Positions 1-26,728 of a DNA stretch of 64,000 nt are shown in pieces; within the stretch, counting starts at the first letter, position 1, and each line of letters begins with the position of its first letter. The notes under the pieces are model-generated. The model did not search any database. It worked only from the letters and a program-made list of their open reading frames with translations, and had not been told where the DNA came from. The translations under genes were made by a program, and so were the position numbers. This stretch comes from Elsinoe ampelina. Lineage: Eukaryota. Location of the stretch: assembly GCA_010093995.1 (NCBI GenBank), contig ML992508.1, positions 592,506-656,505 of the forward strand, read 5' to 3'.

Positions 1-522
1 TCTAGAGGTATATTAATAGGACTATTATAAAGAGCCTTACCTTTAAGAAGACTAATAGACTATTAGTTAACATAATTAAGGCCTACTCTAACTTAAACTT
101 TACTAGAGATAAATTAACTATAAGATCTATATCTAGTACTATTATCTATATACTTAGTATACTAGTTATTTAGAAGTTAAGGCTATAGAAGATTATTATA
201 TTATTAAGTACTAAGGCTAAATACCTTACCCTTACTAAGACCTATAGAGAGATTAATTAGTTAAGAAATCTTATTATTAAACTTAGGCTACTTACTAATA
301 TTTACCTTAGCCTAACTATAGTCTTTATTAATAATAAATTAGCTATTAAACTTATAAGAGATTATACTAACTTAAGGAGATCTAAGTATATTAATCTAAG
401 AAATTATTACTATAGAGAGTAGTATAAACTTAAAGTAATTAAGCTTAAGTATATTAATATAACTTAGTAATTAGCTAATATACTTATAAAGCCTAAATCT
501 CCTAATAAGATCCTTAATTAAT
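1..522 (+). pseudogene. Copia pol C-terminus (RNase H), RIP-inactivated
   Basis: agatctaagtatattaatctaaga = RSK(H)I(D)LR; ttagctaatatacttataaagcct = LA(D)(M)L(T)KP. Stops are TAA/TAG. Confidence 0.85.
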
Positions 523-699
523 TAGTAAAGGCTAATTACTTAGTATATATCTATACTATATACTTATTTAGATTTTATATATATTATTATTCTAAGTATG
601 TTATTTATACTACTACTACTTATTAAGCTATCTTATTTATCTAAAGCTTAAAGTAAATTACTTTATTATTAAAGAAGAGAGAAAGGAAAAGCTATTATA

Positions 700-1943
700 A
701 CTCTATTACTAGCTACTTATACCTAAGCTATATCTACTACTTAGTACTATTATTACCTTTAATAACTCTTACCTATCCTCTACTTTAAATTACTTCTTTA
801 TAGAAGAAGAACTTCTTCCCTTATTACTACTAGTAGACCTTATAGAAGTATTAGATCTAGACCTACTATACCTTATTAGTACTAGGCCTAGTATAAAGGC
901 ATAAATAGGAGAAAGCTAACTAGGGTAGCTAGTAGCTATAATCCTTATAAGCTCTACTATATAGTTTATTACTATAGTAGCTAAGTTACGAACCTTAGTA
1001 GTAGTTAGGTTAGTAGGATCTATAAAGTTTATAGGGACTACTATAAAGTAGTAAGAGTTAGTATAAGTTATTAAGGTATTAACTACGCCTAATAATACCT
1101 CTAGTATATAGGCCCTTAGTAAGAACCTCTAAGGTAAAGTACTACTAAAAGAGATAGACCTTAAGAGCTCTATTAGTAGGTATATTAGGCTATATAGAAT
1201 AGGCTAGGTAATAACCCTTAAGCTACTTAGGGTCCTTATAAGTTTAGGAGAGCTAATAGGCCTTAGAGTTAGAGTATAGTTAGCTAAGAAACATCTAGTA
1301 TATTAGTTACTATAAGTATAGTAAGTGTAGGCCTTATTAAGCTAACTAGGTAAAGTAATATACTTACTAAACTTACTACCCTTACCCTTACTCTAATTAC
1401 TACTAGAGTTAGATCCCTAATACTTAGTATAGTAATTAGTACTATAGTAGACTACTCTACTAGTAGTACTAGAAGCTATTAAAGTAGTAGAGTAGTTAGT
1501 AGATCTAGTAAGGTTAACTTGCTTAGTTAGATCCTTAACTAGAATAGGGTTAGTAACTACTAAGTATATACTATAGGTACTAAAGGCCTAGACTACTATA
1601 GACCTCTAGATAGGATATAAGTTAGTATAGTTGTAATAACTAATTATCCTAAGCCTAAGAAGAGCATTTTAGATTATATTAGCTAACTATTAAGTTAAAG
1701 TCTAAGTTAATTAGGCTATTAATGTTAGCTTATACTATTAATACTTTATAGCTACTTACTAAGAGTATTAAGATAAGTAATTAGTCTTATAGTAGTATTA
1801 TAATTAATATTAGAAGTACTAGGTAACCTTAATAGAGAATTTCTCTTCTTACTACTACCTCTACTACCTAGTAAACTACTTAGAGTACTAGCACTAGTAG
1901 TAATACTACTAATACCTAGCTATTACTATACTATAGCGCTTAT
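700..1943 (-). pseudogene. Antisense spliced accessory gene inside the Copia 3' region, with a DUF3716-like six-cysteine cluster
   Basis: About 400 codons nearly open (only TAA/TAG stops) after removing intron 1716-1759 (GTAAGT...GCTAAC...TAG). Positions 1291-1431 de-RIP to C-x2-C-x19-C-x10-C-x2-C-x8-C with F-x2-C, P(G), AC-x2-C-x-Y and RC. The 3' end is uncertain (~690-770). Confidence 0.65.
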
Positions 1944-2303: not shown

Positions 2304-2445
2304 TATTATAATAGAAGACTAGTATAGCTTCTCTAGTACTAAAGAACTAGTACTAATAAGTCAGCGCACGCATAGTAGATAAATCGGTTATTATAGCTCT
2401 CTGAATGAAATACACGTCTCTCGATCCGATTTGCCAGTTACAATA
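2304..2445 (+). repeat. Copia 3' LTR (142 bp)
   Basis: Follows the PPT. Termini TATTATAA...TTACAATA correspond to RIPped TGTTGTAA...TTACAACA inverted ends. Confidence 0.7.
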
Positions 2446-2852
2446 GGTTCCCGGTCCGACGTAGAAGCTTATCATGCAGTCGTCCTAAATATACAGAAGT
2501 TCTAAGCATATCAATATGGTCATGCACACAAACTGGACACCTCCAAGTGATGATCACACTGTCATAAGAGTCGTCGTTATCACGAGAGAGATGTAGTCGC
2601 AAATCGCCCGCCATGCCGGTGCATAAAGTACGTGTGCACTGACTTCCAACTCAATTTTTGTGTTACATCACCTCCCAGTGTCAATGTTCGAGTCGCCTCG
2701 ATCAGAGGCATGTTGAAGTCAACGTAAAAAGGACATCTATACCATAAGCTGTCGCAGATGAAAACGTATCTTACTTGCTTTTCCTTGCCCCATCCATTTC
2801 CCGCCAGCGCTAATACACCACAAAAAGCATATCCATCCGCACACTCATTCCC

Positions 2853-5800
2853 TCAGAGCGGCTTGCCACCGATGAAGTCACTCCATCTCCTGACTTCTGA
2901 TGGGATACCCTCCTGCTTGGGCAGCTTGGCCCTCATACACTCTGCGAAGAGCACAGCGGTCTGTACGACATTAGTAAGGTCCGTCGATGGAGAGGAGAAT
3001 AAAGACTTACCTTGGGCTCCATGAACAATGGGACACCGAAATCCACAGCATTCCTCCTCATCACATAATCCTCATCGAGCAGGCTGCTCGCCCGGGTCTT
3101 CGCCAGGTTGAATACACCCCTAATGTCGTACTTCTGGAACACCTCTCTGAGAGCTCTCTTGTCATCCTTCGGGAACTCGATGACTTCAACCTTGACCGAG
3201 CCGTCCTTGCTGTTCTTCTCCAAGAAGTTCTTGACATCGTCATTGGCGGCGTAGAGCTTGTAATTGAGTGGTGCAACGAAGTCGACGATTTGGGCCAAGT
3301 AAGGCTGAGTGACATCGCCGCCGAAGAGGAGGCCTTCGCCAGGGAGAGGAAGGCGGAAGTTCATGGCGCTCTGTGCGGCGGTCCAGTAGGCTTCAATCAG
3401 ATCCTTACCGAAGCAAGCCATCTCGCCGGTTGAGGACATTTCCACTCCGAGGAAAGGATCCGCACCAGCTAGTCTGGTCCATGAGAACTGAGGTACCTTG
3501 ACTGCCACATAGTCGCGCTTCTCCTTCATCAGATCGACGGGTTCTGGCACGTTGTGGTTGGTGAGTGCTGATGTTGCTGCTTGAATAAAATTTGTTCCCA
3601 GAACTTTGCTTACGAATGGGAACGAGCGCGAGGCACGCAAATTGCACTCGATGACCTTAAGGGCGTCCGTTGACGGCTCGTGGATGATCTGCATGTTGAA
3701 GGGACCTGTGATGGACCAAGCTTCGGCGACCTTGTCAGCGATCTCCTTGACACGGTCCTGAATTTCCTTCGATGTGTTGACCGGCGGTAGGACGAGAGTG
3801 GCATCACCAGAGTGCACACCGGCATTCTCGACGTGCTCACTGACAGCGTGGACCAGGACTTTACCAGATGAAGCGACAGCATCAACGTCGATCTCACGAG
3901 CGCCTTGGATGAATTGAGTGATCACAACAGGATGATCCGGGCTGACGTTACTGGCGGCTGTGAGCTTCTCTTGCAGCTCGCCCTCGCTCCAGATGACGGT
4001 CATGGCAGCGCCAGAGAGAACATAACTTGGGCGAACCAGGACGGGATAGCCAACGGAGTCGGCAAAGGACTTTGCGTCTTCATAGGAAGTGAGCTCTTTC
4101 CACTTTGGTTGGTCGACACCGATGGAGTCCAGGATCGAAGAGAACTTGTGCCTGTCTTCAGCCTTGTCAATGTCCTTGGGATCAGTACCGAGCACACGCG
4201 CGCCGCCTGATTCCTGCAGCTTCAAGGCGATGTTCTGTGGAAGTTGACCGCCGGCGGAGACAACGACACCAGATGCGGATTCGAGCTCGTAAATGTCCAT
4301 GACCCGCTCGTATGATAGCTCGTCGAAGTAGAGCTTGTCAGCAACATCAAAGTCGGTACTGTAGGTCTCAGGGTTGTAGTTGATCATGACGGTCTTCTTG
4401 CCTTGAGCTCTGAGAGATTGCGCTACGTTTACAGCACACCAGTCGAACTCCACGGAGCTACCGATACGGTAGACACCAGAGCCGAGGACCATGGTTCCGT
4501 GATCGTCAAAAGTGACATCGTGAGAGGTAGCATTGTATGTCGTGTAGCAGTAGTTGGTGTCTGCCGGGAATTCGCCGGCCAATGTATCGATCCTCTTGAC
4601 AAATGGTGTGATACCGAAGCTCTTGCGGCGAGCACGAACTTCATCCTCAGTAGAATTGACTGCCACAGCGATTTGCTTATCGGAGAATCCAAGCTTCTTT
4701 GCGTGTTGCATGGTTTCCTTCTTGATACCGTAAAGACTTCCAATATCCTCAAGATCATGAGTGCAATCAACGATATTTTGGATCTTGTGCAAAAACCATT
4801 TGTCAATCTTGGAGAGCTCATGAACTTTATCAACGGAATAGCCTTCGTGGAGCATAGCCTGGCCGACAGCCAGCCATCGACGGTCTGTTGGGTGTCGGAG
4901 TACATCATCAAGATCTTCGAAGTGATCGCCCTGCAGGCCATGGTACTTGGGGTCGACCTGTCTGATAGCTTTTTGTAGCGATTCCTCGAATGTCCTTCCG
5001 ATTGCCATTACTTCACCAACGGACTTCATTGCGCTACCGATATCTCGTTTGACATGCTGGAATTTGCTCAAATCCCATCGCGGTATCTTGGTAACAATGT
5101 AATCCAGAGCCGGCTCGAAGTTGGCAGTTGTGGTTTTCGTGACAGCATTAGGTAGTTCCGGGAGGGTGTGTCCGAGTCCGATTTTCGCGGCAGTGTAGGC
5201 CAGTGGGTATCCGGTGGCCTTTGATGCTAGAGCAGATGAACGAGAAAGACGAGCGTTAACTTCAATGACCCTGTAGTCAAGACCGTCGGCCTGGAGCGCA
5301 TATTGGACATTGCACTCGCCGACCACGCCGAGATGTCTGACAATCTTGATCGCGGCGGATCTGAGCATGTGATACTCCTCGTCGCTGAATGTTTGACTTG
5401 GCGAGACTACTATACTGTCTCCAGTATGCACCCCGAGGGGATCGAAGTTTTCCATGTTGCAGACAGTGATACAGTTGTTCTCTGCATCCCTGACAACCTC
5501 ATACTCTGCTTCCTTCCAGCCTTTCAAGCTCTTCTCGATTAGGACCTGGGGACTTGTGGACAGTGACCTTGCCGCCAAATCTCGAAGCTCCTGTGGGTTA
5601 TTGGCGAACCCTGACCCGAGGCCTCCTAGAGCGTATGCGGCTCGCGCAATGATAGGGTATCCGATCTCTTCAGCGGCGTCAAGAGCAGACTGGACTGAGT
5701 CCACGGCTGTAGACTGGGCGACTGGAATATCGATCTCGTTGAGGGCTCTCACAAAGAGGTCGCGGTCCTCACTTGTCTCCAGCGTCTTGATCGGGGTTCC

Positions 5801-6455
5801 CAGCACCTTGACACCGTACTTCTTCCAAAGACCCAGCTTCTCCATCTGCACACCGAGATTGAGGGCAGTCTGTCCTCCAAAGGAAAGGAAGACGCCATCC
5901 GGCTTTTCTTTCTGTATGACAAACTCGACGTACTCCGGGGTGACGGGGAGGTAGTAGATCTCATCGGCGAGGACGTGGGAGGTCTGAATAGTCGCGATAT
6001 TGGGGTTGATCAGCACAGAGGCTACGCCGGCCTCTTTGAGGGCTTTCAGAGCTTGTGAACCTGATACGAGCGTTAGCCAGCGTACTGGGTCCTCTTAGGT
6101 CGACCTTACCGGAGTAGTCGAACTCGCCGGCCTGCCCGATGGCGAGTCCACCACTACCTATGACTAATACTTTCTTGACATCAACAGGGTTCTGTGCACC
6201 AGCAATGACACCGCTCTCGATATAGGCCTTCGAATTTGGGGCAGTAGCCGTGGCATTGGTCGCGTAACGGACGTGTCGCTGGCTAGGTCGATGCGCAGGA
6301 GTAGTCTTCTGAGTCGCGAGCAGCCTCTCCTGGCGAGGGCGAGCAGGTATCGAAGTCGAGAAGCATCTTGCGTGCTTGGTCGGGGCAGGATTACTTGAGC
6401 CTTTGGCAGCGACCTGCTTGGTCACGAGCCGAGCTATTCGGGCGTGGTGAGCCAT
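2853..6455 (-). CDS. CPA2: Carbamoyl-phosphate synthase, arginine-specific large subunit (mitochondrial presequence); introns 6061-6109 and 2961-3010
   Basis: KVLVIGSGGLAIGQAGEFDYSG|SQAL, two ATP-grasp halves, GSGVYRIGSSVEFDWC. Canonical GTAAG/CTAA/AG introns join the ORFs in frame. N-terminus is Arg/Ala/Ser-rich. Confidence 0.95.
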
Positions 6456-6586: not shown

Positions 6587-7089
6587 CAGAGCTTGGACGT
6601 TTGGGGTTGTGGTATAGATAAGGAAGCTCTCCGGTTGGTCGGCCGCGGAGGTGATGCCAATCCTCCAAGCAATTGGAAGACCGCAGTGAGGAATTGGTTT
6701 GAAGTACAGCGTCCTCGAGGCTTGGACAAGCTGCAAATGAGAGACTCCCACAGTTCTTCCCAGAAGTATCTGCTACCCTGCAGACTTTCGCAGGAATGGA
6801 ATTTTTTTGGCTGCATGTGATTTCAATCGCCGACATCGGCCCCTCACGGTGAGACTCTATGGTAGCCGATTTGCGCCTTTCCGCCAAACGCCAATTTTTC
6901 TCCAGCCTCTACCAGCCTCGTAGGAAGAGCAAAAATACCCTTTACTACAACTCTACTAATTTATTAAATTAGTAAGTCAGTAATAGCTTCATTTATGCGG
7001 CGCACCTTACGGATTAATTTCATCTAATTTTTATAATCTCTACTATACTAAGTCGTGTGTAAAACTCTCTCTAAACTCTCTCTATCCTA

Positions 7090-9435
7090 TATAGTTATAC
7101 CTTACTAAGTAACTAATATTACTCCCTAGAGGGAGAGAATTACTTAGCGTATTAAAGAGCAGTAAGCAACTATAGACAACGTACTTAACGAACTATATAA
7201 GCACAATATAGAGATTATAAAGTAAATACTTAAGTAATAATTATAGTAATAGAGTATCTTCTACTAGCTAAAGACTAAGGATAGTAACGCTCTAAAGGAG
7301 CAGATTATATAGTAGTTTAAGCTAATAAGGTAGAGTAATAAGAAGATACTTAGAACACTAGTTAATAACGGCTTTAAGGTTAATCTAAAAGGTCTATTCT
7401 ACCTTTAAAAGAGTATAGAGCTAGTAAGAAAGACTCCTTAAGAGTAGTATAAGTAGTTAAAGGATTAATAGCGCTAGGCCTTATAAATTAAGCTTAATAA
7501 AAGGCTTATCGAGTTACTTAGAAAGGGGTTACTCTATATATATATATATAGTAAGTATAATATTATATATATATATATAATTCTTATAAGTTAACTTACT
7601 ATATACTTGCTAACCTCTAATAGTAACGTTATAATAGAAGTCCTTTACGAACTTAACTCTTAGCTCTTTTAAAATTGCTATACGTATGTCTAGAATGTTT
7701 AATAATCTTATTAATAAGTTATAGAGCTAAATAGTTTATAGTTAATAGACGCTTACTATAAGTTTAAGACTTAGAGTCTCTAGATCTATACTAGTATCGA
7801 CTACTATTTACGAAGAATAGCCTAGATATACTATAGTATCTTAGTATACTTATAATGCTTAGTACTTTATTAATATCTTACCTATTTATCTAAGACTAGT
7901 ATACTACCTTAGTAACTATAGATAGATTATAGTAGAGAGACTATAGTAGCTACTAATATACACTATTATATCTCCTAGCAACTTTGTAGTGTACGAGATA
8001 ATAGAGACCCTTTATACTTCTATAACTACTTTAATTATAGCATAAGTAAGAGCAATTAGCGGATTAAGGTATACTAGTTATAGTAGGCCTACGTGCTTAA
8101 TACTTAGTATAATTAGTTTTAAGAGCTAAGTAATACTAGTAAATTTAATAGAGATCTACTACCTAATAGAGTTATATTTCTTATAGTCTATATGCCTATT
8201 ATATAGAGAGTTTACTAGTTCTTTACTAGCCTCTAGAACTACTATACTATCTGTAAGTAGCGTAAGTATAACTAGGTTATCTCTAGTAGTCTAGATAAGA
8301 TATATTAATATCTAGAGTAGTAGAGTAGTAAAGATAGAGATATCTAAGTACCTACTAGAATTATTAAGGAGTACTACTATATAGTTAGAGATTTTAGTTA
8401 GTATAAGTTAACTCGCTAGAAACTTACAAAACTTAGATCTATACTAACTTCTTAATAGATTCTAATAAGTATTTTCCTCTAGCTATACTTACGTAGTATA
8501 ATTATACCCTCGAGTAATTTAGCTTTATAGTCTTTAATAAGACAGATTTAATAGCTAATAGTATACTAGTCTACTAGCTAGTCTATTTAGCACTTTAAGA
8601 TACTATATAGTATTACTATTTAAGTATAGCTAAGCCTCTTCTTAGTAAGTTACTACGACTATTAGCTAACGATCTACTTAATTAACTATTAGCTAAGTTT
8701 ATTAAACTTCTCGACCGAGCTAGTATCTAATAATTATAATCCTAGTAAGTGTACTTACTAGAGCCTCGCTAGCTACTTAAATTTTTTTCTATAGCTAACT
8801 ATTAATAGTTTAAATTTGCTCTAAGCTATAATCCTTTTTAATAATCTCTTATAATTAGTTATAGTCTTAGAGGAAGAGATTAGATAGTGTAATTACTATC
8901 TAGTTAGCGACTTTACTTATAATTTAATATATAGAAGATATATTAGGTATAGTACTTATAAGATAAGAAACCTCTTCTTTACTAGTTCGACTATACTCTT
9001 CGTATATAAGAGTACTATATTCTTAATAGCTAGCTACCGAGATAAAGCTTACTAATTAAGTTATTAAGCTACTAAACCTCCTTAAGCCTTTTAAGCGCTA
9101 GTTACTCCTCGTGCTTAACTCTCTTAAGTTACTAAAACTAAGTACTAACGAGGCTTCTACTACCCCTCGGCGACTAATACTAGATTATAGAGACTATTAA
9201 CTTACTCTCTAGTAACGCTAGTTTAAGTACTAGTTTAAGTACTACCTTCTCTAGCTACGCTATAGTATAGTACTAAGCTTAAAGTATAAGTTTTATTTAG
9301 TAAAAGAGGTAGAAGTAGTATTATAACTTATTACCTTAGTAATACTACATTATATAAAGACTTCTTTAGAGATAACTAGTTCCTTACTATTAGTAAATTA
9401 ATCTTTACTAATTGACTTTTCTACGTTCTTATTAC
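7090..9435 (-). pseudogene. 3' part of multi-intron unknown gene(s) of the TIR element
   Basis: Long near-open minus-strand frames with TAA/TAG stops and GTAAG...CTAAC...TAG intron-like segments. The frame continues from 24341 across the Gypsy insertion. Confidence 0.5.
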
Positions 9436-9640
9436 TAATATAAGGCAGATACGAACTAGATTCAGTTAGGATATAGTTTAGATTAGTTACGTAATCTCGG
9501 TATCGCGGCCTAGGCTTCCGGCCGCTTTGCTCTTAATATTATATATGCTTTATATACTAGTTTTCTCTTTCTTCTTCTTCTAAGTCTCGATATCTTAATA
9601 AATAGATACAATTAACCTCTTATCTTACTAGTTATAATTA
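9436..9640 (+). repeat. Gypsy A LTR 1 (205 bp)
   Basis: TAATATAAGG...GTTATAATTA (RIPped TGA...TCA); aligns with 22960-23162 and 24131-24335. Confidence 0.9.
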
Positions 9641-10049
9641 CTATATTAAGACTTCGAAACGACTATAACTAAGCGATAGAGCTATTAAACTATCTAGTTA
9701 TTCTACTACTTATATAACTACTAATAACTACTACTTATAAAGAATTAAAGAATTAAAGAAGAAGCTATTATAACTATAGTTCCTACGTACACTATAATAG
9801 ATCCTTACTGCTACTATATAGGTTAATACTACGAACCTCGAAGATATAAGAAGAAGGTAATAAGTTAAGTTATAGATAACTCTTAAAGGAAGTAGGCTAC
9901 TAGCTAAAAATTTTTAATATTTCCTTTATTATATATTAATGTTTTATACCGTTTTATTCACGACTAACTACGCTAAACATAGCTTAATCTAACTATAGCA
10001 ACGAAGAGCGCTACTAAAGTAAGCTACTTTAACCTATCCCTAATAATAA

Positions 10050-13000
10050 TAATATCTCTATCTACTTTCTCTACTATAATCTTTTTACCCTCTCTAACGC
10101 TATACTCCTTAAGAAGCTATAGAAAGAGTATAGTATATAGGCACTAAGAGACGTATTTAACTATATTAAGTCCTTCTATAATAAGTAAACTACGTAGGTA
10201 AAAGGCACTTATATTAACGCTCTCTACTATTACTACGAGTTAGATACTACTTAGGCCTAGCTTAGTAACTTTTAATTCGAACTAGACGTATCTTAGTTCT
10301 ATACTAATAGCGTTACTACCTAAGCTACTTACTACCTAGATAAAATCTAAGAGCTTAAGGCTAAGGTAAACTAACTAAGAAACGAGATAGAGTATAGTAT
10401 ACTAGCTCTTTCTATACGTAGCTCTACCTTATTAGAAAAGATACTAGACTCTACTATCTTTAGCACAGGTACACTAGAGTAGTTTAAGGTCTATAAGTAC
10501 TAGATAAGGAATAAGATACGCGCTAATATAGATTGTTTCTCTATAAAGGATACCTAGTTTACCTATCTATACTTACGCCTCTCTAGAGAAGCCTATACCC
10601 TTATTATAGACTTAGCTAGTAATAACGTTATTAGCGTTAAAGAGGTTCTTACTCTCCTAGCCTAGCGCTTTAAGGATCTTAACTATAGAGCTACTATACG
10701 TACTTAGTTCGCTAACCTCTTCTAGCGTAATAGTATATTTAACTCCTTTATTAGTAAGTTTAATAAGTACGCTCTTTACGCTAAGATTGCTAAAGAGAAG
10801 TAGCTATACTAGATCTATTAAAAGATATTTAATAAGCTACGTAATACTCTAGTTAACTACGATACTAATAACCTTACTACCTTTATTACTAAGGCCTACG
10901 CTACTAACTATAATATCTAATAGAATAACCTTATTACTAAGCGCACTTAGGCTTTATATTCTATGCTAGCTATAAGCTACACCGCTACTATACCTACTTA
11001 CGTACCTTATTCTATCTCTACGCCTATAGCTCTACCTACCTTTTACTCTATTACTAGAGGTACTCTATAGCTTTTTCGTCTAGCTCTAGTACTTACCTAT
11101 TACGTATATAGTAAGCCTAGATATATCTCTACTAAGTATATAGCTAGCGCCTTAGAGAAGGCTACTTATACCGCTATACGCCTTGTACGTATTAGCGCTA
11201 TAAAGGAGATATAGTAGCTTTAGAATCGCTTAGCTAAATTAAGTAACTAGGTCGACACTAGTTTAGCTTATAAACTAGATCTAGTTTAGCCTTAGTTCGA
11301 CCCCGAAATAGACTATAAGTCTACTAGCTACTCTAGCTAGAGAAACGAGTAGCTAAAGGACAAGTCCTATTCTCTAGCGAAATAAGAGCAATTCGAGATA
11401 GATTTAAAGGAGATATACGTTTAATAAATAGTATTATTAGCTACTATATCCTCGCTATTATAACTTTTATTACTATTTACGACCCTTATAACTACTCTTA
11501 TACTATTACGCTCTAAGCCTTTATTAACACTAGTACGCTTATTAGCGCCGTAGTTAATTATAACATCCTTAATAAGCTAAAGAGCTTCGGCTGCCCTATA
11601 GCGTTAGCTAGCTCTATTTAGCTTTAGACTTATAATAGTATTCTAATAGAGTAAGTTACTTATAGTATTCCCCTTACTACTACTGTCTCTAGTAAGCTAA
11701 ATACTCTTACTACCTTCTATATTATAGATATTAGCTGTTTCGATATTATTCTTAGCCTCGGCTAGCTTAAGGCTAATAGGGCTACTATCGACTATAAGTA
11801 TAGCTAAGTCACGTACAAAGAAGAGTTTTTACTAGTCGTTATTAAGTAGGAGCTACTATAGCTAACTAAAGAGCTAGGATCTAGATCTAAGTCTAGCTCG
11901 GATCTAAGAATCTAACTCGGCAAAGCTACTATTCTAGTTTAGAACTAGTTTAGTTCTAGTTTAACTCGTAAACTAAGTTCTAGTTTAGCTACTAAGTTAG
12001 GACGAACTAAACTATATCGACTACTAGCTCTTAGGTTAAACTTTAAGCTAAATTAGAGAAAGTTTAAGCTAATCTCCTATAGTACTTAGTTAATATATAA
12101 GTTCTTCTATATACCTACCTACGTAAGTAATACTAAATAAGAAGAGCTAACTATTACCTTTATTAGCGCCGCCGCCTTTATATTAGTAGCTAAATACTAA
12201 AAGAATAAGGTGTTTATAATATTAGTAAAGAATATTAAGAATTACTACCGAATAGCCTCTAAACTAGAACTAGACCCTATAGTAGTTCTCCTAGAGAAGC
12301 TTTAAGAGTTTACTAACGTCTTCTCTAAAGAATAATCTAATATGCTTCCTTAGTATCGGCTAGATTTTAACAACTATATTATACTTAAAGATAGCGCTAA
12401 GCTACTATATATAGAGCCTTTACGCTACCTATTACTAGAAGAACTTAATATAGTAGAATAATTTATTTAAGAATATCTTAATAAAGGCTTTATTACACTA
12501 AGTTTCGCTAGCTATTTCTTACCTATTCTTTTTGTTTATAAGCTAGATAGAGAACTTCGTCTCTATATTAACTACTATAGCTTTAACGAGGTAACTAAGT
12601 AAGATATCTATTCTCTACTCCTTATTAAAGAAACACTTATACGTGTAAGTAAGGCTAAATAGTTTAGTAAGATTAATATCTATTAAGCCTTCTATTACCT
12701 CTATAACTCTATTAATAGTAAAGATCTTACTATATTCTCTATATACATAGGTAACTTTAAGTAGCTAGTAATACTATTCGGCCTTACTAATACCCCTATA
12801 GTCTAGTAGAGGTTTATAAATTACAACTTTGTTAATATACTAGAGCGCTTTATGTCGATCTACCTAGATAATATTCTTATCTATATAAATAGCTCTCGCC
12901 GAGAGTATACTAAGCATATTAAGCTAGTACTCTAGAGACTCTACGAATTAGGCCTAAATACTAACATTAAGAAGAGTAAGTTCTACCTAACGGAGGTAAA

Positions 13001-14865
13001 GTACCTTAGTATTATTATTAGCTAAGATAGAGTTAAGATAGATCCTAAGAAGGTAGAAGCTATATAAGTGTAGAAATAGCTAGCCCCTAGTAACACTACT
13101 TAGGTAAGAAGCTTTATTAGCTTCTATAGCTACTATTGTCGCTTTATTAAGGGATTTAGCACTATCGCTAAGCTACTAAACGATTTACTTAAGAAGGACA
13201 CTATACTATAGAACGATAAGTATACTACTATATTTAATTATATAAAGTATACTATTATAAGCGTACCTATCCTTACGTACTTTAATTACTTAAAATAGAT
13301 AGTCCTTAAGATAGACACCTCCGACACTACTACTACTAGAATTCTATTATAATATAATAAGTCTAACGTTCTCTAGCCTATTACCTTTTTTAGTAAATCT
13401 ATAAATAAAGCCGAACGTAACTACGCTATCTATAATAAGGAACTACTAGCTATTATCTAAGCCTTCGAGGAGTAGGCCCCTAAGCTTATAAGTACTTAAT
13501 CTAATAAGGCTATCTATATTCTTACTAACTACTAATTCTTAATATACTTTATAAAGACTTAGAAGCTATTACGCTACTAAGTGTACTAGGCTCTCTACCT
13601 TATATAGTTTAACTTTAAGATTATATATAGGCCTAGCGCTACTAACAGCAAGGCTAATACACTTATAAGGAGAAATAGAGATATACTATATTTAAAAGAA
13701 GACTCTAATCTACGCTAGACGCTACTACTATATAAGGTGCTAGATTAGCGCATTATTAACAAACTAAATCTAGGTCGTATCTAAACTAAATTACTAATCT
13801 AAGCTAAACTAAGATCTAGTTTAGTATCCCGTTTACGAACTAGTTTATTATTTAGTTTATTACCTATTTTACCTCCTATTTTACTACCTATATCGGCGCC
13901 TATTTCGGCTACTAAACTAGGTATCTACGTAGTACCTATCTTAGCTATAGAAGAGCCTTTACCCCTTTTCGACGAAGTAGCTAAAGCTAACCTATAAGAC
14001 TCCGATTTTAAGATAGTTTATAGCATTTACTATATAATAGAAGCCTTCCTAAAGAGGAAATAGCTACTATCGACCGATGTTATAATTAAAAAGAAAATAC
14101 TATAGGCTAATAGCCGACTAATCGTGCCTTTCTCTATAGCTACGAAGGTTATCTAAGAAGTTTATATATCGAAGAATTATATACATGTAGGAGCCACTAA
14201 GACAGCTACTATAATAAAGTCTACTTTCTATATCTCTAGATATAATAGTAATATTAAGAGGTTCGTCGCTAACTATTACAACTATAAGTATTTAAAGGCT
14301 TATTATAGTTTACTAGCTAGCCTCTTATCGCTATTGTCTATTCCGGAAAGGCCTTAGTAATATATTACTATAGACTTCGTTACTAGCCTACTCTTAGTAG
14401 ATAGCTATAATATAGTACTATATATTATTAATCGCTTATCTAAGGAATAACACTTAATTCCTTACTTCTCTAGAGATAAGAGAACCTTAGCGTTCGAGAC
14501 TACTAAGTTATTATTCTTCTACGTATAGAAACTATATAGCCTACTAAATAGTATTACCTCTAACTATAGTCTCTAGTTCGTTAGCGATGTATAGAGTAGG
14601 CTCTACTAGATTCTAAAAATTATAGCTAAGCTCTTAACTACTAGCTACCCTTAAACTAATAGCTAATTAGAGGTTATAAATCGTAAGTTTAAGTAGGTTA
14701 TTCGTTTATACGCTACACGTTTTAGTAATTAGACTCTTATTCTACTAGTAGTAGAGTTCTCTACTAATACTAGCCTATTAGAAAGTATAAAGCTATTACT
14801 ATTCGAGGTTACTAGGGAATACAAGTCTAGGCTAAGCTTCTAGCTCTCTTCCGACGTACTATTAA
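10050..14865 (+). pseudogene. Gypsy A gag-pol (5' part, up to the element B insertion)
   Basis: Zn knuckle (C)YV(C)(G)KP(GH) at ~11095; protease AFI(D)T(GA) at ~11517; RT IYLD(D)ILIY at ~12858; RNase H (ETDA)SD at ~13305; integrase ITS(DRGPQ)FVSD at ~14555. Start is approximate. Confidence 0.85.
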
Positions 14866-15038
14866 TATAGAGGAGACTCGGTATATAGCTCTAGCTAAGT
14901 CTATCACATAATAAACTCTCTCTAGCTACCTTCTATATAGCCTCTAGCTACTACGAATAAAGGCAGCTATTAGTTTATCTATCTATCTAGCTTATAGATA
15001 TCGGTAGTTCTATACGTTACTATATACTTACTCTTATA
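14866..15038 (+). repeat. Gypsy B 5' LTR
   Basis: TATAGAGGAGAC...CTCTTATA; matches 22147-22319. Confidence 0.92.
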
Positions 15039-15149
15039 TTTCTAATAGCTCCCTTTAGTTATAGCCTATAGAATTATCACTATAGACGATTAAATTATAT
15101 AAGATTATTCTAATTTAGAACCTATTTAGATAGATAGTAGCATTATCAA

Positions 15150-18100
15150 GAATGTCTTATATCCTTAGTCGAGAATGTTAGAAGAGCTAAGAGATAATAG
15201 AGATAGCTAAGAGAGGCATACTTCTACTAGTAGTAATAGTAGCCGTATAGCTATTATGTTAGAAGCAATAATAGCCTAGCTAGACAAAGTTAAAAATTTA
15301 GTACAGGACTATAATTAACTTTAATATGCTAGTGCTACTCTAGCTAAAGGCCGGATAACTACTAAAGTAGTTCCTTTAGTACCTCTAGGGCTAGTATTAA
15401 TAGGTCTACCTACTATAGGTTAATCTATAACGCTAATAACTAGGGGGCTATTAACTAAGGCTAAGGAGCTAGAGCTATATAAGGCTAAGAGCATCTCCGA
15501 GGCTTAGGCCTTTAGAAGGAGCCTCTAGATAGTCTTTAACTATAAACCGACGTAGTTCTCTAATCCGGAGAATTCGGACTAATAACGTATTACTTATATA
15601 GTAATATACCTTTCTCTATCTCTCTAGAAGACATAGGAACGCCTCTATACGCTAGACTTAATAAACTAGTATTATCTCTCGTATAAAGGGGACTTCTTAA
15701 GCTTCGTTAATAATTAAGTAAAAGACTCTATTAACTAAGAGATAAACGTAGTTCTATTCTATTATAGCTACTACTAGAAGAATAATAAGAGTGCCTAGAA
15801 GTTCTCTAATCGATTAGTATCTCTAGAAGAGATAATCGAGCTAAAGTATAATAGTAAGTACCTAGCTTAGTACTACCTAGCTAAACTATTACTCGATCTA
15901 TATAAGTAGATCCTATAGTTCTCTAATATACTAACTACTCGTATAAAGCTTATTATATAAGCCTTTACTCTCGAGAACCTTACTTAGAGTAAAGACTATA
16001 ACTAATAGAAGCGCTATAGAGCCTCCCTAGAGGCGTTCGGTAGCGATTATAGAAAGCGCTCTAAAGGCGAGAAAGGAGATAAGTAGAAGAGTAAGGGCAA
16101 GAGTAAGAGCTAGTAGAGAGGTACTTACTAGAGAGCTAGCTATTAGGCTAGCGGCAGAAACAATCCCTAAGGAAGTCCCGTAGGCAAGTGTTTCTACTAT
16201 TATAAGAAAGAGTACTATACTTACTCCTGTCCTAAGAAGCTAGATTCGAGCCGGAATAGTAGTAGTAAGGGAGGTAGCAATATTAGAAATGTAAAGGCGG
16301 AGGGTAGTACGCTCGTACCTACGTAATACGTTATAGAATGCTAGAGGAGCTTACCCTAGAGCTATAAGGCTCCTATAGTACTTCTAGTATAGGCTTACTC
16401 GAGCCTAGTTCTTAGCCTCGATAGTAAGGTCGAGGTTAAGGTGCTCTTAGATAACGTAGCTAATATTAACGTTATTAACCTAGCATTTATACTCTAGTAT
16501 AACTTATAAAAGGCAGACGTAGAGTACCCTTAGGTAAGAAGCTTCTAGAGAAAGAAGGCTTACTATTATAGCGCCTATAAAGTAGACTTATACCTTATAG
16601 ACAATACTAGAGTAACACGAGAGTCGAAAGGCATTTTCTATACGTTAGAAACTAGCTCTCCTATTATTCTTAGTAGGCTATAGCGTTATAACTAAAGTGT
16701 CGTAATAGATAGCTATACTAACTAGTAGAGATATAGCTATAACATTGCTAGCGTTAGAGTAGTATAAGCGAAGGAGTTTATAAACCTTCTACTCGCTAGA
16801 AACTAAGGATTTACTCTAGTAGTGTCTAATACGACACTAGATACAATAGTTCGGAAGGTAGCTAGATTCTCTATAGAGGAACTACCTAGCGGAGCTATAA
16901 ACCTACTACTCTACGTAAAAGAGTTTAGCGATGTATTTATTATTAACTCTATACATATATATACTATAGACGGTGTAGTATACTCTATCGATCTAATAGA
17001 AGAGAAATAACCTTCCTTCTAACCTCTTTATAACCTCTTAGTAAAGAAACTCGTAGTGCTCTATAAGTACCTTAATAACGCACTAGCTAAAGAATAAATC
17101 TATAGGTTAGAGAGTCTAGCTAGCGTACTAATCCTTTTCGTTCTAAAGAAAGATAGTAGTCTACGCCTATACGTTAACTACTATAGCTTAAACACTATTA
17201 CTATTAAGAATCGACACTCTTTACTCTTAATTAGTAAGACGCTTAATAGGCTAGGTAGAGTAGTAGTATACTCTAAGCTTAATCTTAAGGATATATACTA
17301 CCGTATTAGAATTAAGGCTAGAGACAAGTAGAAAACTACTTTCTAAACTCGCTATAGCTACTTTAAGTACATAGTTATACCTTTTAGCTTAACTAACACC
17401 CCGGCTATATTCTAGGCCTATATTAACTAAGTACTTACGGGGCTAGTTAATAACTTCTATATAGTATATTTAGACAATATTCTAATCTATAGCAACTCTA
17501 TAGAGAAGTATAAGAAGTACCTAGAGAAGGTACTAGAGAGGTTAAGGCAGTTTATATTATACGTAAACCTAAAGAAGTATAACTTCTTTAAAAAGAAAGT
17601 TAAGTTCTTAAGCTTTATAGTAACTACTAAGAGAGTTATAATAAACCTCTAGAGAGTTTCTATAATTACGGATTAGCCGACCCCTAGGAGCTACTACGAG
17701 GTTTAGTAGTTTCTTAGCTTTACTAACTTCTATCGAAGGTTTATCTAGAACGATTTAAAGATCGTAGAGCTCTTAATAGCGTTATTTAAGAGGTTATAGA
17801 AAGAAAAGCAATCGGCACTCTAGAAGTAGACTACCCTAGAATAAAAGGTATTTAAGACTATCTAGAAGGTCTTTACTAAGGCGCTAGTACTTAGGCACTA
17901 TAAGCCGTCTAGGCCAATTAAGATTAAGACTAACGCGTCTAAGTAGACACTCGAAGCAATTATCTCCTAGTTAGTTCTAGTTAGGGATACTAGTAAATAG
18001 CACCCTATTACTTTCTAGTCTTATAAGCTACTCTCTATAGAATAGAACTACGAGACCTATAATTAGGAGCTTCTCTCTATTATAGAGGCATTTAAGCAGT

Positions 18101-20210
18101 AGAGACACTACTATAAGGGTGCTCTAGACCTAGTCTAGGTAATTTTTAATTATAATAACCTAAGGTACTTTATAACGACTAAGTATTTAAATAGTTACTA
18201 GGCCTAGTAGGCTATATATCTATAGGTATTTAACTTTATAATTAAGTACTACGCGAGCTCTAAGAACCTAGCGGATACTCCCTTACATTGTCCGGACCTA
18301 ATAGTAGATAAGATAGGCCTTATAAATAGCCTACCGACTTTATAGTTAAAGCTAGAGGCTAGCTAGCTAGCTATAGGCAGTATAGTACGGCGGATCTATA
18401 TATCCTTACTAGAACGCTTAAAGGGCACTACTTTAGAAGAAGATATAGACGTAACTATCCGCGTAGTATATACTAGTTATTTAGACGCGAACGAGGACTA
18501 GAGAGACTCTAAGGAGTTTCTAGAAAATAAGTTTAAATACAAAGAAGATACTAAAGACGCTAGGGGTAGTTCCCTAGAAGCTAACTAGCCTAACTAGCCG
18601 CAAAGTAAGTAGTTAAAGCGTAGGGAGGTAAGGCTATACTAATTAGGTACAATGCTAAGATTAATGCCTCGTATCGCTACTATAGTAGTAATAGAAGAGG
18701 AAAATCTATAGAGAGAGAGTTCTAGCGACTAGCTTCTCGAAGCTATTTATAGTCTATAGAAGTAGGATTTAATAGCGTAGCGGCGTATAAATCTCTCTAT
18801 TTAAAGAGCTAATAGAGGCTCCTTAGTATAGTATCGAAAGAGCGAACTTCTATATAAGGATAATACTATATATATACTAGAAGATGTAGCACTCTATATA
18901 GAGTTACTATAGTAGCACTATAATAAGTTTAATAGTAGTTACTTCGCTTATAACAAAACATATAAACTCTTAGCTAGAAAGTACTACTAGCCTAGTATAT
19001 ATTACAACGTCGATAACTATATTAAGACGTGCTATGTTTACTAAACTATAAAGACTTAGACCTATACCCCTTATAGTAAGCTTATAAATTTGCTAATGCC
19101 TAAGGCGCTATAGAAAGAGTTAACAATAGACTTTATTATAGATATGCCTTTAAGTAAGCTAAATAGCGTTATATACGACGTAGTACTTATAGTAGTAGAT
19201 TAACTTACTAAGATAGTAAAGTATATTCTGTGCTAGAAGACAATTACGGCCTAGTAGCTTACTAAGCTGTTTTTCGATCGAATTATACTAGAGTATAGTA
19301 TTCTAGAAGAAGTAGTATTAGACTATAGAACAGTCTTTACTATAGCCTATTAGTAAACGTTTACCTACAAATTACAATTCGTAAGGCGTTTATTAACTAC
19401 TTTCTACCCTTAAATAGATAGATAAATAGAATAATAAAACAGATTCCTAATCTAGTATCTACGCTATTATAGAGTATAGGACTAATCGGATTAGTCTCGC
19501 TAGTTAAAGATAGTAGCTTACGTAGTAAACATCTCCTAGAATAAGACATTATAAATGTCCCTATTCGAGATATATACTAGTAAGAATACTAAAGGAGATC
19601 CGAATAGGGACTAAGAGTATTTCCTTTAGAGAGAAGTACTAGCTATATAAGATTATATAGCCGCCCTAGTCTCGATAAGGTAGGGCTTATAGAAGCGCTA
19701 GAAGTAAGCTTAGGAGTAGTAGAAGGACTTCTATAATAAGTAGCGTAAGCTAATGTCCTTTAATATAGGAGATAGAGTTCTTCTATCTACTAAGAACCTA
19801 AGGCTAAAGGTAGTAAAACATAAGCTAGCGCCGAAGTGCTTTAGACTATTTAAGGTGCTAGATTCCGTAGAAGCCTAAGCGTACTAGTTATAGTTACTAG
19901 AGGAGTCCCGTATCTACGACGTATTCTATATCTCCTTACTTAAGCTATATAACTCTCGTAGGAGTACTAAGGTAAATTCGGGGCTAGTTAAGGTAGACAA
20001 TAGTATAGAATATAAGGTAGAGCGAATCTTAGAGCATAGTTAGCAGAAAGAAGACACGTTCCTAAAGGTGCTCTAGAAAGGCTATACTCTATTAGAGGTA
20101 ACCTAGGAACTAGAAGAGGTATTAGAGAATACCTCGGAGGTAGTAACTAAGTACTAGGTAAACGTCGGCTAGAAGACTAATAGAAGAGTTATAAAGAGAG
20201 TATAGAGGTA
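15150..20210 (+). pseudogene. Gypsy B gag-pol with chromodomain, RIP-inactivated
   Basis: CF(HCH)KK..(H)..SCP knuckle at ~16189 in frame with the protease; RT VYLD(D)ILIY at ~17463; IKTNAS (ETDAS) RNase H at ~17923; integrase; EY(E)VERILEH chromodomain at ~20008. Boundaries are approximate. Confidence 0.88.
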
Positions 20211-20244
20211 AACATAGGTAGTATAGACTATATATTCTAAGAAT

Positions 20245-21625
20245 CTATCTACTATAACTCCCTAACTCTACGCTTAGAGCACTAACTACCTAGTCTTACT
20301 TAGTGCTACTCTACTTAGTAGCGTAGAGAGTATTCTTATATATATTCTAGTAGGTAGTAACGACGGAGTTCTCTACCTTAGACCTTAGCTATAGGTTAGT
20401 CTTATAAGCTACTAGATTCTCTATAGTCTTATTACTAAAGTTAGGCATCTCGTAGGTACCGATAGTAAAGGCATAGAGATTATCTATAGAGAGAATAGTA
20501 ACAAGAAAGTGCCTAATAGCGTAGTAGTAGTTAGCTACGGCCTAACAAGCGTTACTACCCTTAGGGAGCTTAAGAGACTTAGCTAGTAGGTCGATGTAAC
20601 GCTAACGAGCCTTATTACTACTAAAGAACGTAAGAGAGCAAGTCTTAAGAGTAAAGTAGTTAACTACGGAACTAGTATAGAAGCTAACTAGATTACTAGT
20701 AGAAGCTTTATAAGCTTAGGCACTTATAGGCAGATTGCGCCTAATAGTGCTACTAGGAGATATAAAGCCCTTATTATTACTATTAGTATCGGCGTTAGCT
20801 ATATTAGTATTATAGTTTAAGTAGGAAGAGTAGTAGATAGAGGTAGCTAGCTTAGTAGCCTAGGTGCCCTTACTAGAGGATATAGTAGGCTTCTTAGCTA
20901 GGGTAGCGAGTTTCTTAGCCTTAGACTTCTTAGGAGTAGTAGGCTTAATAGGCTTCTTAGGCTCTAGAGACCTAGTAGCCTCCTTAGTCTTACGCTTCTT
21001 CCTATAGATATCCGCGCGAAAGAGAGTTAAAGCTACTAGAAGATCCTTACTAGAGTAGTGCTATAGACAAGTTAGTAGTAAAGAACACTCTCGATAAGGT
21101 TAACACCTATAGTGTAGAGAATAGTAGTAATATTCTCGATAGTAAGGCATAGGCTACGTATTTTAGTAACCTTAGCGCGCTCTAAGTTCTTCCCTTAGAG
21201 AGAGGTAATATTAGTACTAGCGTAAGTGTCCTATATACCCTTAGTCTACTTATATTCCTTAATAAGGTTTATAGCCTCGATATACTTATTAGTGTAGTAG
21301 TTGTACTTCTTAACTAATATAAGGTTAATAGAGTTCTAGGAGACGTAGTTATAGTACTAGATAGTGCCGTAGGCGTTATTAACGCGGTCTAGTAGAATAG
21401 CGTTATTAATGTTATAGTAAGCGACCTTTATATACTTATAGCAAGTATAAGTCTTAGTAACCCCTAGGTTGTAGTTATAGAGAGCATCTAGCGAATATTA
21501 GTAGCGCCTCTAGAGAACTACTAGTAGAGTACTAGAGACTTACTAATTATATCCCTAACGTAGTTACTATAGTAGTAGTAAGGGGTAATACGTAGTAGTA
21601 GCGCCTAAGAAGCTCTAGGAGCTAT
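20245..21625 (-). pseudogene. Antisense two-intron accessory gene of Gypsy B with a Lys/Pro/Ala-rich basic tract
   Basis: Introns 21488-21543 (GTAAGT...TACTAAT...TAG) and 21061-21110 (RIPped GTAGGT...TACTAAC...TAG) join three near-open frames of ~420 codons. KKRKTKEATRSLEPKKPIKPTTPKKSKAKKLATLAKKPT at 20884-21000. Confidence 0.7.
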
Positions 21626-22146
21626 AGTACTTACTAAGGTATTCGAGAAGCTATATATAGAAAGGACTAACGTATTAAAGCGTAAGAGATGCCTATATAG
21701 GCGCGTTCTATTTACTATATAATACAATAAACATAGAAGGTAAATTTATATACGTTGTTATCTCCTAGGAGGTAGTAGTATTATCTAAGAATTAACGTTA
21801 TAAAGTATCGATATATAATACTTACTTAGGACCTCCAAGGGAGTTCTATATAGTAAATAAACTAATCCTATACGTTTGCTAAAGCGCTAGTTGTTTCTTA
21901 AAGCAATAAATGCTTTAGCTTATAATATAAAGAATAGCTATTAGAGGAGAGCTATATTTGCCTTAATATATTAGTGTCGTTAGTAAATAAAGGTATAATA
22001 GATATAAAGAGTAAATAAAGAAGCTAAGTTCTTCCCCTATATAAGGAATACTAACCTACCCTTATAGGAGAGGCCTATAATAGCGATTAGAGGCCTACGA
22101 AGGATATAGTTTAATTAAGGGTAATTAAATATAAAGAGGAGATAAT

Positions 22147-22319
22147 TATAAAGGAGACTTAGTATATAGCTCCGGCTAAGTCTATTACGTAACGAACTCT
22201 CTTTAGCTACCTTCTATACGGCCTTTAGCTACTACGAACAAAGGCAGCTATTAGTTTATTTATCTATCTAGCTTATAGATATTAGTAGTTCTATATATTA
22301 CTATATACCTACTCTTATA
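22147..22319 (+). repeat. Gypsy B 3' LTR
   Basis: Direct repeat of 14866-15038. Confidence 0.92.
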
Positions 22320-22915
22320 ATTAACAAGAGCTAAGCTAAATAAGGCCGACATTTACGCTCTTACTAAGCAACTAGAAGAAGCGCTAGCTATTACTAAGGC
22401 TAACCTTGCTATTACCTAATTATAAATAGTAGAGTAAGCTAATAGACACTACTAGCTAATAGAGTTCGAGGTAGGCGATTTAGTTTAGCTATTAACAAAG
22501 AACCTCTAGTTACTAGGCAATCTAAAGCTACTACTAAAGTATGTTAGTTCTTATAAGATTCTTAAAAAATAGTTACTATTAGTATATAGGCTCGATCTAC
22601 TAGCTACTCTATAAAGGATTTACTCTATGTTCTATACTAACCTCCTTACTAAGCACCTAAATAACTCCCTACTAGGCTAAGTCTTTAGGGAACTACCTCT
22701 AGTAGAGGTCGATAGTAAGAAAGAGTATAAGGTAGATAATGTAATTAATATATATATACTATAAGGAAAGCTAGTTACTTATATAAGCTAGAAGAGCTAT
22801 CTAGAGAATCTTACGTAGTGGCTAATTAATAACCTTAAAGGAGTAGCCGATGTGCTATATAACTATCTAGACTCTTATATAGATAAGCTAAAGCCGAAAT
22901 AGATTAATAAATAAT
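22320..22915 (+). pseudogene. Gypsy A integrase C-terminus and chromodomain (resumes after B)
   Basis: GPY/F-type region, then EY(E)VDNVI(D) chromodomain at ~22723; PPT before 22960. Confidence 0.85.
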
Positions 22916-22959
22916 ATATAATAGTATTTAAGAGTAAATACGCTTAGGAGAAGAGATAG

Positions 22960-23162
22960 TAATATAAGATAGATACAAACTAGATTTAGTTAGGATCTAG
23001 TTTAGATTAGTTACGTGATCTTAGTATTATAGCCTAGGCTTCTAGCCGCTTCGCTCTTAATATTACGCATGCTTTGTATATTAGTTTTCTTCTTCTTCTT
23101 CTAAGTCTTAATATCTTAACGAATAGACGTAATTAACTCTCTTATCTTACTAGTCGTAATTA
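22960..23162 (+). repeat. Gypsy A LTR 2 (internal)
   Basis: Aligns with LTR1 and LTR3; preceded by GGAGAAGAGATAG. Confidence 0.9.
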
Positions 23163-24130
23163 TATATAGTCTACTAGATAGTATTACCTCGAATTATAGC
23201 TCTTAGTTCGTTAGTAACGTATAGAAAAGATTCTACTAAATTCTAAAGATTACTACTAAACTGTCTACTATAGAGTATCTATAAATAGATAGCTAATTAG
23301 AGGTTATAAATTATAAGTTTAAGTAAGTTATTTATTTATACACTATACACTTTAGTAATTAGACACTTGCTCTACTAGTTATAGAATTCTCTACTAATAT
23401 TAACCTATTAGAGAGCACTAAGCTATTACTATTCGAGGTTACTAGAGGATATAAGCTAAGGCTAAGCTTCTAGCTCCCTTCTAACGCACCGTTAATAAGA
23501 GCTAAGCTAAATAAGGTCGACATCCGCGCACTTACTAAGCAACTAGAAGAGGCACTAGCTATTACTAAGGCTAACCTTACTATTGCCTAGTTACGGATAG
23601 TAGAATAAGCTAATAAGCACTACTAGCTAATAGAGTTCGAGGTAAGTAATTTAGTTTAGCTATTAACAAAGAACCTCCGGCTATAGAGCAATCTAAAGCT
23701 ACTACTAAAGTATATTAGTCTCTATAAGATTCTTAAGAAACAATTACTACTAGTATATAAGCTTAATCTACTAGCTACGCTATAAAGGATCTATCTAGTA
23801 TTCTACGCTAACCTCCTTACTAAGTACCTAAATAACTCTCTACTAGGCTAAGTCTTTAATAAACTACCTCTAGTAGAAGTTAATAGTAAAGAGAAATATA
23901 AGGTAGATAACATAATTAATATATATATACTATAAGGGAAGCTAGTTACTTACGTAAGCTAGAAAGGCTATCTAGAGAATCTTACCTAGTAGCTAATTAA
24001 CAATCTTAAAGGAGTAGCTAATATACTATATAACTATCTAGACTCTTATATAGATAAGCTAAGGCTAAGATAGATTAATAGATAATATATAATAGCGTTT
24101 AAGAGTAAACGCATTTAAGAGAAGAGGTAG
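23163..24130 (+). pseudogene. Second copy of the Gypsy A integrase tail and chromodomain
   Basis: Colinear with 14533-14865 plus 22325-22959, and lacks the B insertion. Confidence 0.88.
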
Positions 24131-24335
24131 TAATATAAGGTAGATACAAACTAGATTTAGTTAAGATATAGTTTAGATTAGTTATATAATTTTAGTATTA
24201 TAGCCTAGGCTTCTAGCTACTTCGCTCTTAATATTACACGTGCTTTATATACTAGTTTTCTCTTTCTTCTTCTTCTAAGTCTTAATATTTTAATAAATAG
24301 ACATAATTAACCTCTTATCTTACTAGTCGTAATTA
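24131..24335 (+). repeat. Gypsy A LTR 3 (205 bp)
   Basis: Aligns with LTR1; followed by TSD ATTAC. Confidence 0.9.
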
Positions 24336-24340
24336 ATTAC

Positions 24341-25170: not shown

Positions 25171-25407
25171 ATACTAGAGAAGCTAGAGATAAGGTTCCTA
25201 ATAGCGATAACTAAGTTTATTTAAGTATTAAGTAAAAGGTTAGTACTTATATAAAGAAGAAAAGCAATTTATAGATAATAAGGTTAGAGTAGAAGGTTAA
25301 GTATATATATAAGGCTAGTAGATAAGAGAAGTAATTAAAGGTTCCTACTAGCGCTATAGTATTATTATTAGTCTTTATTAGGTATTATATCGTATAGTTA
25401 TTAGTTA

Positions 25408-26188: not shown

Positions 26189-26728
26189 AGTAGTAGTAGT
26201 AGTAGTAATAGTAGTAAATAATTAAAATTAGTAACTAAACTAATAATAGAGAGGAGTATAGAGAAGGCTAAGGAGAGAAAGAGAAAGCAAGTATACTTAT
26301 AAGATATAGAGAATTAACTTGTTTATATACTTATATAAGGTATACTAGCGTTACTAGGGGGCGCGTAGTTACTATACTATAATTACTACCTTCTATATTA
26401 GAATAATAATTAAATTTAACTATGCTATTATAGCTCTAAATAGTAACACCATTAGGAAAAGAATTATTATAATTAGATAATAATTAACTACGCTAGAGGT
26501 AGTTGAATTTTAGTAACTCCAAGGGGCTAAGCGGAATTTGCGATTTTGGCCGTTTAGCGGATTGTCGCAAATCGGTTGCCGTCGACTCCCGCGGGATGAG
26601 CGTTCCTTCGACCAACCGATTCACCACCACCTTGGGCCTGCTGGGCAACTTCACGGCTGCACCTTGGCATCGACAGGCCTCATATGAGGGTGTGTGAGTC
26701 AAGCTCTGGGTATCATTCCAACAGTATC

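Follow-up and report, generated by a model that had tools for sequence, protein, structure and literature searches.

Probable relic of an antisense coding region between pol and the 3' LTR in a RIP-killed LTR retrotransposon family of Elsinoe ampelina

Canonical Ty1/Copia retrotransposons encode gag-pol only, and their pol follows the order PR-IN-RT-RH with RNase H as the last domain. In the window analysed here, which is a stretch of 64,000 nucleotides of Elsinoe ampelina DNA (contig ML992508.1, positions 592,506 to 656,505), the relic of a pol frame ends at about 520-545 and a purine run, AGAGGGGGAG, follows after about 1.75 kb. The question raised by this locus is what the intervening sequence encodes and whether it belongs to the element. 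The original prediction had placed the pol end, a gap of about 1.7 kb, a polypurine tract and an LTR in this order, a layout that holds, and it had read the gap as a spliced antisense gene for a zinc-cluster protein of the DUF3716 type.

The GC content of the window alternates between blocks of about 52% and blocks of 25-35%. Positions 1-2350 are part of an AT-rich block in which the RIP indices are extreme. Over 700-1943 the ratio TA/AT is 2.75 and (CA+TG)/(AC+GT) is 0.05, and the corresponding values of the neighbouring genes are 0.5-0.65 and 1.2-1.3. In the parts of normal GC the genes are those of common fungal housekeeping proteins (carbamoyl-phosphate synthase, which adjoins the element, WDR3/Utp12, Arp2/3 p34, SKN1/KRE6, Cox11, a ZIP transporter and others). 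Positions 1-2447 are the 3' part of a RIP-killed, high-copy LTR retrotransposon family, the 5' LTR and the target duplication lying outside the window. We take the element to be probably of the Ty1/Copia type, from RNase H motifs read through the RIP changes. Its parts on either side of the antisense region are as follows.

3..545, plus strand: RIP-mutated pol tail (RNase H end), recognised by stop count and codon score; only the last ~180 codons of pol lie within the window
546..699, no strand: AT-rich spacer from pol to the 3' end of the antisense ORF; GC 17.5%, no frame with a positive coding score
1944..2293, no strand: non-coding stretch from the ORF start to the purine tract; all six frames negative in codon score
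2294..2303, plus strand: polypurine-tract-like run AGAGGGGGAG, directly 5' of the presumed LTR
2305..2447, plus strand: presumed 3' LTR of about 143 bp, ending in ...CA; its end is well defined and its start is set from the purine tract alone

RIP causes transitions only, and codons were therefore scored in a purine/pyrimidine (RY) alphabet that RIP leaves unaltered, with 11 long host ORFs as the training set. In the pol tail, 8 of the 181 codons of the plus frame that begins at position 3 are stops, vs 14-52 in the other frames, and the RIP-invariant RY codon score of this frame is +14.8 bits. At the other end of the element, contigs from the source organism's run (X1) cease matching at 2443-2450, where their summed depth drops from ~199,000 to 135, and the repeat therefore ends at about 2447. 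A short 3' LTR at 2305-2447 is the simplest reading of this end. The first two letters of this presumed LTR, TA, may be a TG altered by RIP. RIP mutation is far weaker over its final ~100 nt (2350-2447; GC 0.36 and index 0.56 for 2305-2447), and the highest summed contig depth is found at the same place; contigs of a further run, X5, which was labelled RNA by guess, match only 2322-2450. Outside the repeat, about 490 nt separate the element end from the 3' end of an intact minus-strand gene for the large subunit of carbamoyl-phosphate synthase (within 2448-6094), and the RIP indices are back to normal within the flank beside this gene.

A second purine run, of 21 nt, is present at ~669-690, 125 nt past the pol end, which is about where the polypurine tract of a canonical Copia element would sit. 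An LTR-like sequence sought after this run gave an alignment score of 40, which is within the null (median 35, 95th percentile 45), and was rejected. Rfam matched no family, and a scan for bacterial promoters and terminators, which is irrelevant to fungal DNA, stayed below shuffle expectation.

Between the two spacers one frame of the minus strand stands out.

700..1608, minus strand: antisense ORF relic, main body; each codon starts at a multiple of 3; judged by stop count, a Markov null and RY score

Read from 1608 down to 700, this frame contains 14 stops in 303 codons; the other two minus frames contain 52 and 58, and the plus frames 27-62. In Markov-1 shuffles the best frame had a mean of 34.6 stops with a minimum of 21, and none of the 2000 shuffles came down to 14. 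When all 303-codon windows in six frames of the RIPped DNA of the window were counted, 21 of 1602 had 14 stops or fewer; three of these 21 are the antisense ORF itself and the other 18 cluster at a few other places of RIPped DNA. By stops the frame lies within the lowest 1% of such windows, and stops are as dense in it as in the pol tail of the same element. The RY codon score agrees in direction. It is +22.5 bits for the antisense frame, +11.8 for the codon-aligned opposite frame and -11 to -54 for the other four, and it reaches at most about +2 in the spacers. By RY score, the windows of the antisense ORF ranked 16th, 18th and 23rd of the 1602, the 99th percentile being 24.0. The antisense frame is also the best of the six in each 150-nt step from 1643 down to 893, so that the signal stays consistent in phase over about 750 nt. 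The real 3' end of the ORF is probably near 770-790, and upstream the main frame probably extends to about 1682 or 1715.

It could be argued that there is no gene here and that the base composition of RIP-mutated DNA alone produced the open frame. Long open runs do occur in odd frames of this DNA: one of 63 codons begins at 713 on the plus strand, and one of 55 codons in another minus frame (1451-1287) crosses the Tyr-rich cluster treated below. It is also true that no homologue was found. However, neither of these odd runs has a positive RY score, whereas the antisense frame combines a stop count that the shuffles never matched with an RY score in the top 1%, a quantity that RIP has no means of creating, held in one phase over the distance given above. 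We therefore regard a chance frame as highly improbable, and an additional antisense coding relic between pol and the 3' LTR is well supported.

The gene is dead today. In the spliced 400-codon reading of the original prediction there are 22 in-frame stops, made up of 14 TAG, 8 TAA and no TGA, and no ATG opens the frame, ATA being the only such codon found. The statement that the frame contains TAA and TAG stops only is thus borne out, together with a poverty of stops far beyond chance. The restriction to these two stops fits RIP of Gln and Trp codons, with the caveat that TGA is rare in RIPped DNA anyway.

Upstream of the main body there is a further open stretch, and between the two a sequence that could have been spliced.

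1760..1919, minus strand: first open stretch, putative exon 1; its frame differs from that of the main body; ATG is absent, and ATA codons lie at 1943, 1934 and 1790
1683..1759, minus strand: candidate intron; donor GTAAGT at 1759, in-frame acceptors at 1716 (44 nt) or 1683 (77 nt, preferred)

The putative exon 1 has 55 codons without a stop, and a run of that length was met in only 23 of the 5050 stop-to-stop runs of RIPped DNA. Its RY score of +10.1 bits is the best of the six frames, and the steps at 1943 and 1868 also rank its frame first. The switch of frame coincides with a GTAAGT donor, with the donor G at 1759, which closes this first open stretch; the hexamer occurs once per 969 strand-bases of RIPped DNA. 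It had been proposed that a canonical intron of 44 nt is present. The minus strand of 1716-1759 does read GTAAGT...GCTAAC...TAG and does join the two frames. However, the 44-nt splice leaves 6 stops up to 1590, four of them within the next 11 codons, and an in-frame intron of 77 nt (1759-1683) fits better, as it removes this cluster of four and leaves 2 stops up to 1590. Longer in-frame options exist and in-frame AG acceptors are plentiful. The full intron-like motif was matched 8 times in the window, at 6 places that all lie in RIPped blocks. Judged from these letters, an intron in the antisense gene is plausible, its donor being suggestive and its acceptor ambiguous. A 1-nt indel could explain the change of frame equally well.

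If the ORF is a part of the element, other copies should carry it at the same place. From run X1, 4621 contig pieces matched positions 1-2600 at no less than 80% likeness. Their summed depth is 55,000-109,000 over the ORF vs 70,000-96,000 over the pol tail, figures that are not copy numbers and that come from a run which may be the window's own assembly sample and so is not independent. A second organism (run X3) gave contigs at 161-414, 429-1033, 1056-1613 and 1793-2033. The contig at 429-1033 bridges the pol tail and the end of the ORF with 30 differences and 4 small gaps, all of the gaps at 677-775; the contig at 1056-1613 has 56 differences and no gap. Contigs of a third organism (run X4) cover 1-783 and 2002-2523 with almost nothing between, and this uncovered part was not counted as evidence. 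All copies seen are RIPped. Absence of the region from other copies of the family had been named as a finding that would speak against the prediction; the depth in the source organism and the linkage in the second organism point to its presence, although one X1 contig does skip it. That contig joins 752 to 2006 and omits 1253 nt, almost exactly the antisense ORF, at a joint with 30 nt on its shorter side, in low-complexity DNA and at 80% likeness, which could be an alignment artefact or a deletion variant. It is a weak hint that copies with the ORF deleted exist. Plain blastn gave no second copy of 1-2400 in the rest of the window, and blastn on purine/pyrimidine-collapsed sequence gave noise only.

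The antisense ORF was amplified together with the element. It may still be asked whether it did anything for it. The segment could be a passenger, part of a host gene or of some other mobile element, inserted in reverse into one master copy before amplification and with no role in transposition. The base composition is in keeping with a foreign piece, since the GC of the segment is 0.30 vs 0.23 and 0.18 in the neighbouring parts of the element; an intron would suggest an origin from a cellular gene, and the 752/2006 joint would take out the ORF almost to its ends. Transduced ORFs are described in retrotransposons, usually in one or few copies (PMC7264820). Here, however, the depth over the ORF is about that over the pol tail and the two are linked in a second organism as well. 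The segment was also searched for the termini of an independent insertion, the other finding that had been named as contrary, and only low-complexity repeats were met around it, with no terminal repeats or target duplication. Further, the frame was still open when RIP struck, because its stop density equals that of pol, and the joint itself has the shortness and the low complexity noted above. On balance we consider a mere passenger rather unlikely.

The reading of an element-borne gene leads to the nature of its product, for which one segment of the frame had been singled out.

1291..1431, minus strand: Tyr-rich segment, residues 60-106 of the frame; proposed former six-Cys cluster

The 303-codon antisense frame has 26 Tyr, 1 Cys and no His. 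Residues 54-111, a stretch of 58 residues, hold 13 of the 27 Tyr, Cys and His residues, a concentration that was reached by 230 of 20000 permutations and is thus a modest enrichment. There are four Z-x2-Z pairs in the segment and four stops that interrupt it. The spacing x2, x19, x10, x2 and x8 that had been claimed for six cysteines is present from 1431 to 1291. Of the six Cys themselves only one position is Cys now and the other five are Tyr, and the residues that had been written as Q are stop codons in the sequence. It should be noted here that RIP turns Cys (TGY) and His (CAY) codons alike into Tyr (TAY), which makes a former cluster of Cys and His plausible. The segment is best described as one of the Cys/His/Tyr class that could have been a metal-binding cluster once.

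The more specific proposal is that the antisense gene encoded a six-Cys zinc-cluster protein of the DUF3716 type, an accessory factor binding DNA or chromatin, of which RIP has changed five of the six Cys into Tyr. The change from TGY to TAY is the one expected of RIP, and it would leave a frame as poor in Cys and His, and as locally rich in Tyr, as the one seen. A regular expression for the presumed motif (F-x2-C, A-C-x2-C-x-Y and R-C, with C or Y allowed), which does not derive from the family model, matched once in 43,794 codon positions of RIPped DNA, at the Tyr cluster, and in none of 5000 permutations of the frame. The usual spacings of Zn2Cys6, GATA, C2H2 and CCHC fingers were also tried and do not fit the segment. 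There is a precedent for such a gene on a mobile element, REP9-1 and REP9-2 being DUF3716 (PF12511) genes on the class II transposon REP9 of Zymoseptoria tritici (PMC8232023), and a telomere-sequence-binding protein is reported as the orthologue of one DUF3716 protein (PMC10776026).

There are also points on the other side. Pfam gave no family at E<=10 for the 303-residue frame, for the 60-residue cluster or for the 31-residue core; this comparison, which had been suggested as a check on a RIP-reverted consensus, was run on the unreverted frame. It is a test that RIP blunts: the PF12511 model has 59 positions and a cut-off of 22 bits, and RIP would erase its Cys columns, so that DUF3716 ancestry is compatible with this blank. 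The motif is a presumed one, the spacing was chosen after the sequence had been seen and with 13 Tyr to choose from, and the bare six-position spacing is found once more, at 16744 on the minus strand. Four stops fall inside the cluster, across which another minus frame is open, and each Tyr could equally derive from His or have been Tyr from the start. DNA binding and an accessory role are conjectural. The assignment to DUF3716 is thus possible but doubtful, and it gains nothing from Pfam as run here. None of the 69 ORFs of the window that were scanned against Pfam, out of 113 listed ORFs of at least 110 codons, showed a DUF3716 gene.

Our data are explained best, and we think probably, by a RIP-killed retrotransposon family that carried one extra antisense gene with two open stretches and one short intron, and possibly with a metal-binding cluster in its product. 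The gene would have had ~350-390 codons in two open stretches of different frame, joined most simply by one short intron with its donor at 1759. It would presumably have been transcribed towards pol from a promoter of its own within 1944-2293. Splicing does not take out an intron whose orientation is opposite to that of the genomic RNA, the template of reverse transcription. As the gene runs in this opposite sense, its intron would, by this established principle, have been retained in every new copy. The product would have had a segment rich in residues of the Cys/His/Tyr class, and RIP of the family would then have killed the gene. A bolder version is that a Copia lineage took up, in antisense orientation, an intron-bearing cellular gene for a DNA-binding protein with a DUF3716-type Cys cluster and retained it as a factor encoded by the element. 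In our opinion this is unlikely.

Searches for relatives of the antisense product gave only blanks. Neither the complete frame nor its residues 50-115 matched anything in a word-indexed protein library at E<=10. A HMMER search of 1.84 billion representatives gave no match to the frame, and neither PDB nor viral contigs contained one; metagenome contigs were not matched by a RIP-tolerant IUPAC pattern of 1288-1341 or by peptide patterns. The pol tail is equally invisible, with no match in Pfam, in PDB apart from one chance match (E=1), among longer library proteins at E<=10 or in viral contigs. The blanks for the antisense frame are therefore weak and are no argument against a gene. RIP has destroyed the detectability of the element's proteins.

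Antisense additional ORFs between pol and the 3' LTR form a described class, aORF-3R, of which gene23 of maize Grande, rice RIRE2, Silene Retand, Phaseolus PvRetro13 and the fungal brtn of Boty are examples (PMC7264820; PMC8365987). Most copies of a family carry such an ORF, no function has been assigned to these ORFs, some of their products are nuclear, and Boty of Botrytis and Sclerotinia, the carrier of brtn, is a Ty3/gypsy element (PMC7264820; PMC8365987). At the present locus the coding relic, which is no longer an intact ORF, has the same placement between pol and the 3' LTR and runs against gag-pol. The dead antisense ORF is a further case of this class. It shares with brtn, gene23 and the others the position, the orientation and the lack of a recognisable protein family, a likeness of position and description and not of aligned sequence. 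The ORFs of the class occur in most copies, and here the ORF and the pol tail have comparable summed depths, a measure that does not count copies. The present case differs from the published examples in that the carrier reads as Ty1/Copia in a RIP-active fungus, in that there is an apparent intron, and in that every copy seen is mutated beyond function.

Compared with a canonical Ty1/Copia element, the RNase H-like end of pol (as read through the RIP changes), the purine tract, the presumed short LTR ending in CA and the high copy number of the family agree. The departure from the canonical form lies in about 1.75 kb of additional internal DNA, whose opposite strand bears a second coding relic. 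The resemblance to DUF3716 proteins and to REP9 is that of a fungal protein of unknown function able to ride a transposon, and the presumed Cys motif can be placed on the Tyr segment. Unlike DUF3716 proteins, the frame has no match to the Pfam model and has Tyr at five of the six proposed Cys; and REP9 is a DNA transposon whereas the present element is a retrotransposon.

Among the literature matches listed, no fungal Copia element with an antisense additional ORF was found, which does not prove that there is none, and the only fungal aORF-3R among them is that of a Ty3/gypsy element. A Copia case with an intron would widen the aORF-3R class. The link to DUF3716, if true, would tie an uncharacterised fungal domain to mobile elements. 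Should a Copia element indeed have carried such a gene, then together with REP9 it would make DUF3716 a module repeatedly recruited by transposons of both classes, and a transposon origin would be hinted at for many of the 'orphan' DUF3716 genes of filamentous fungi. As the gene is dead in this genome, the value of the finding is as a pointer to intact relatives and not as a working system.

The window contains a second and larger RIP-mutated block at 7000-26500, with several further coding relics. Stop-poor windows of 303 codons are found in it at ~12.1-13.8 kb (plus strand), 16.4-16.9 kb (both strands), 21.0-21.2 kb (minus) and 25.4-26.3 kb (minus), and strong purine/pyrimidine coding scores at 19.9-20.4 kb (plus) and 10.9-11.4 kb (minus). 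A Ty3/gypsy-like reverse-transcriptase motif is visible in the same block, and its relics are probably nested retrotransposons of other families. Two direct repeats, 22321-22620 with 23492-23791 and 22957-23173 with 24128-24344, lie inside this RIPped block 1171 nt apart at 85-87% identity; a tandem duplication may have produced them, or they may be paired LTRs.
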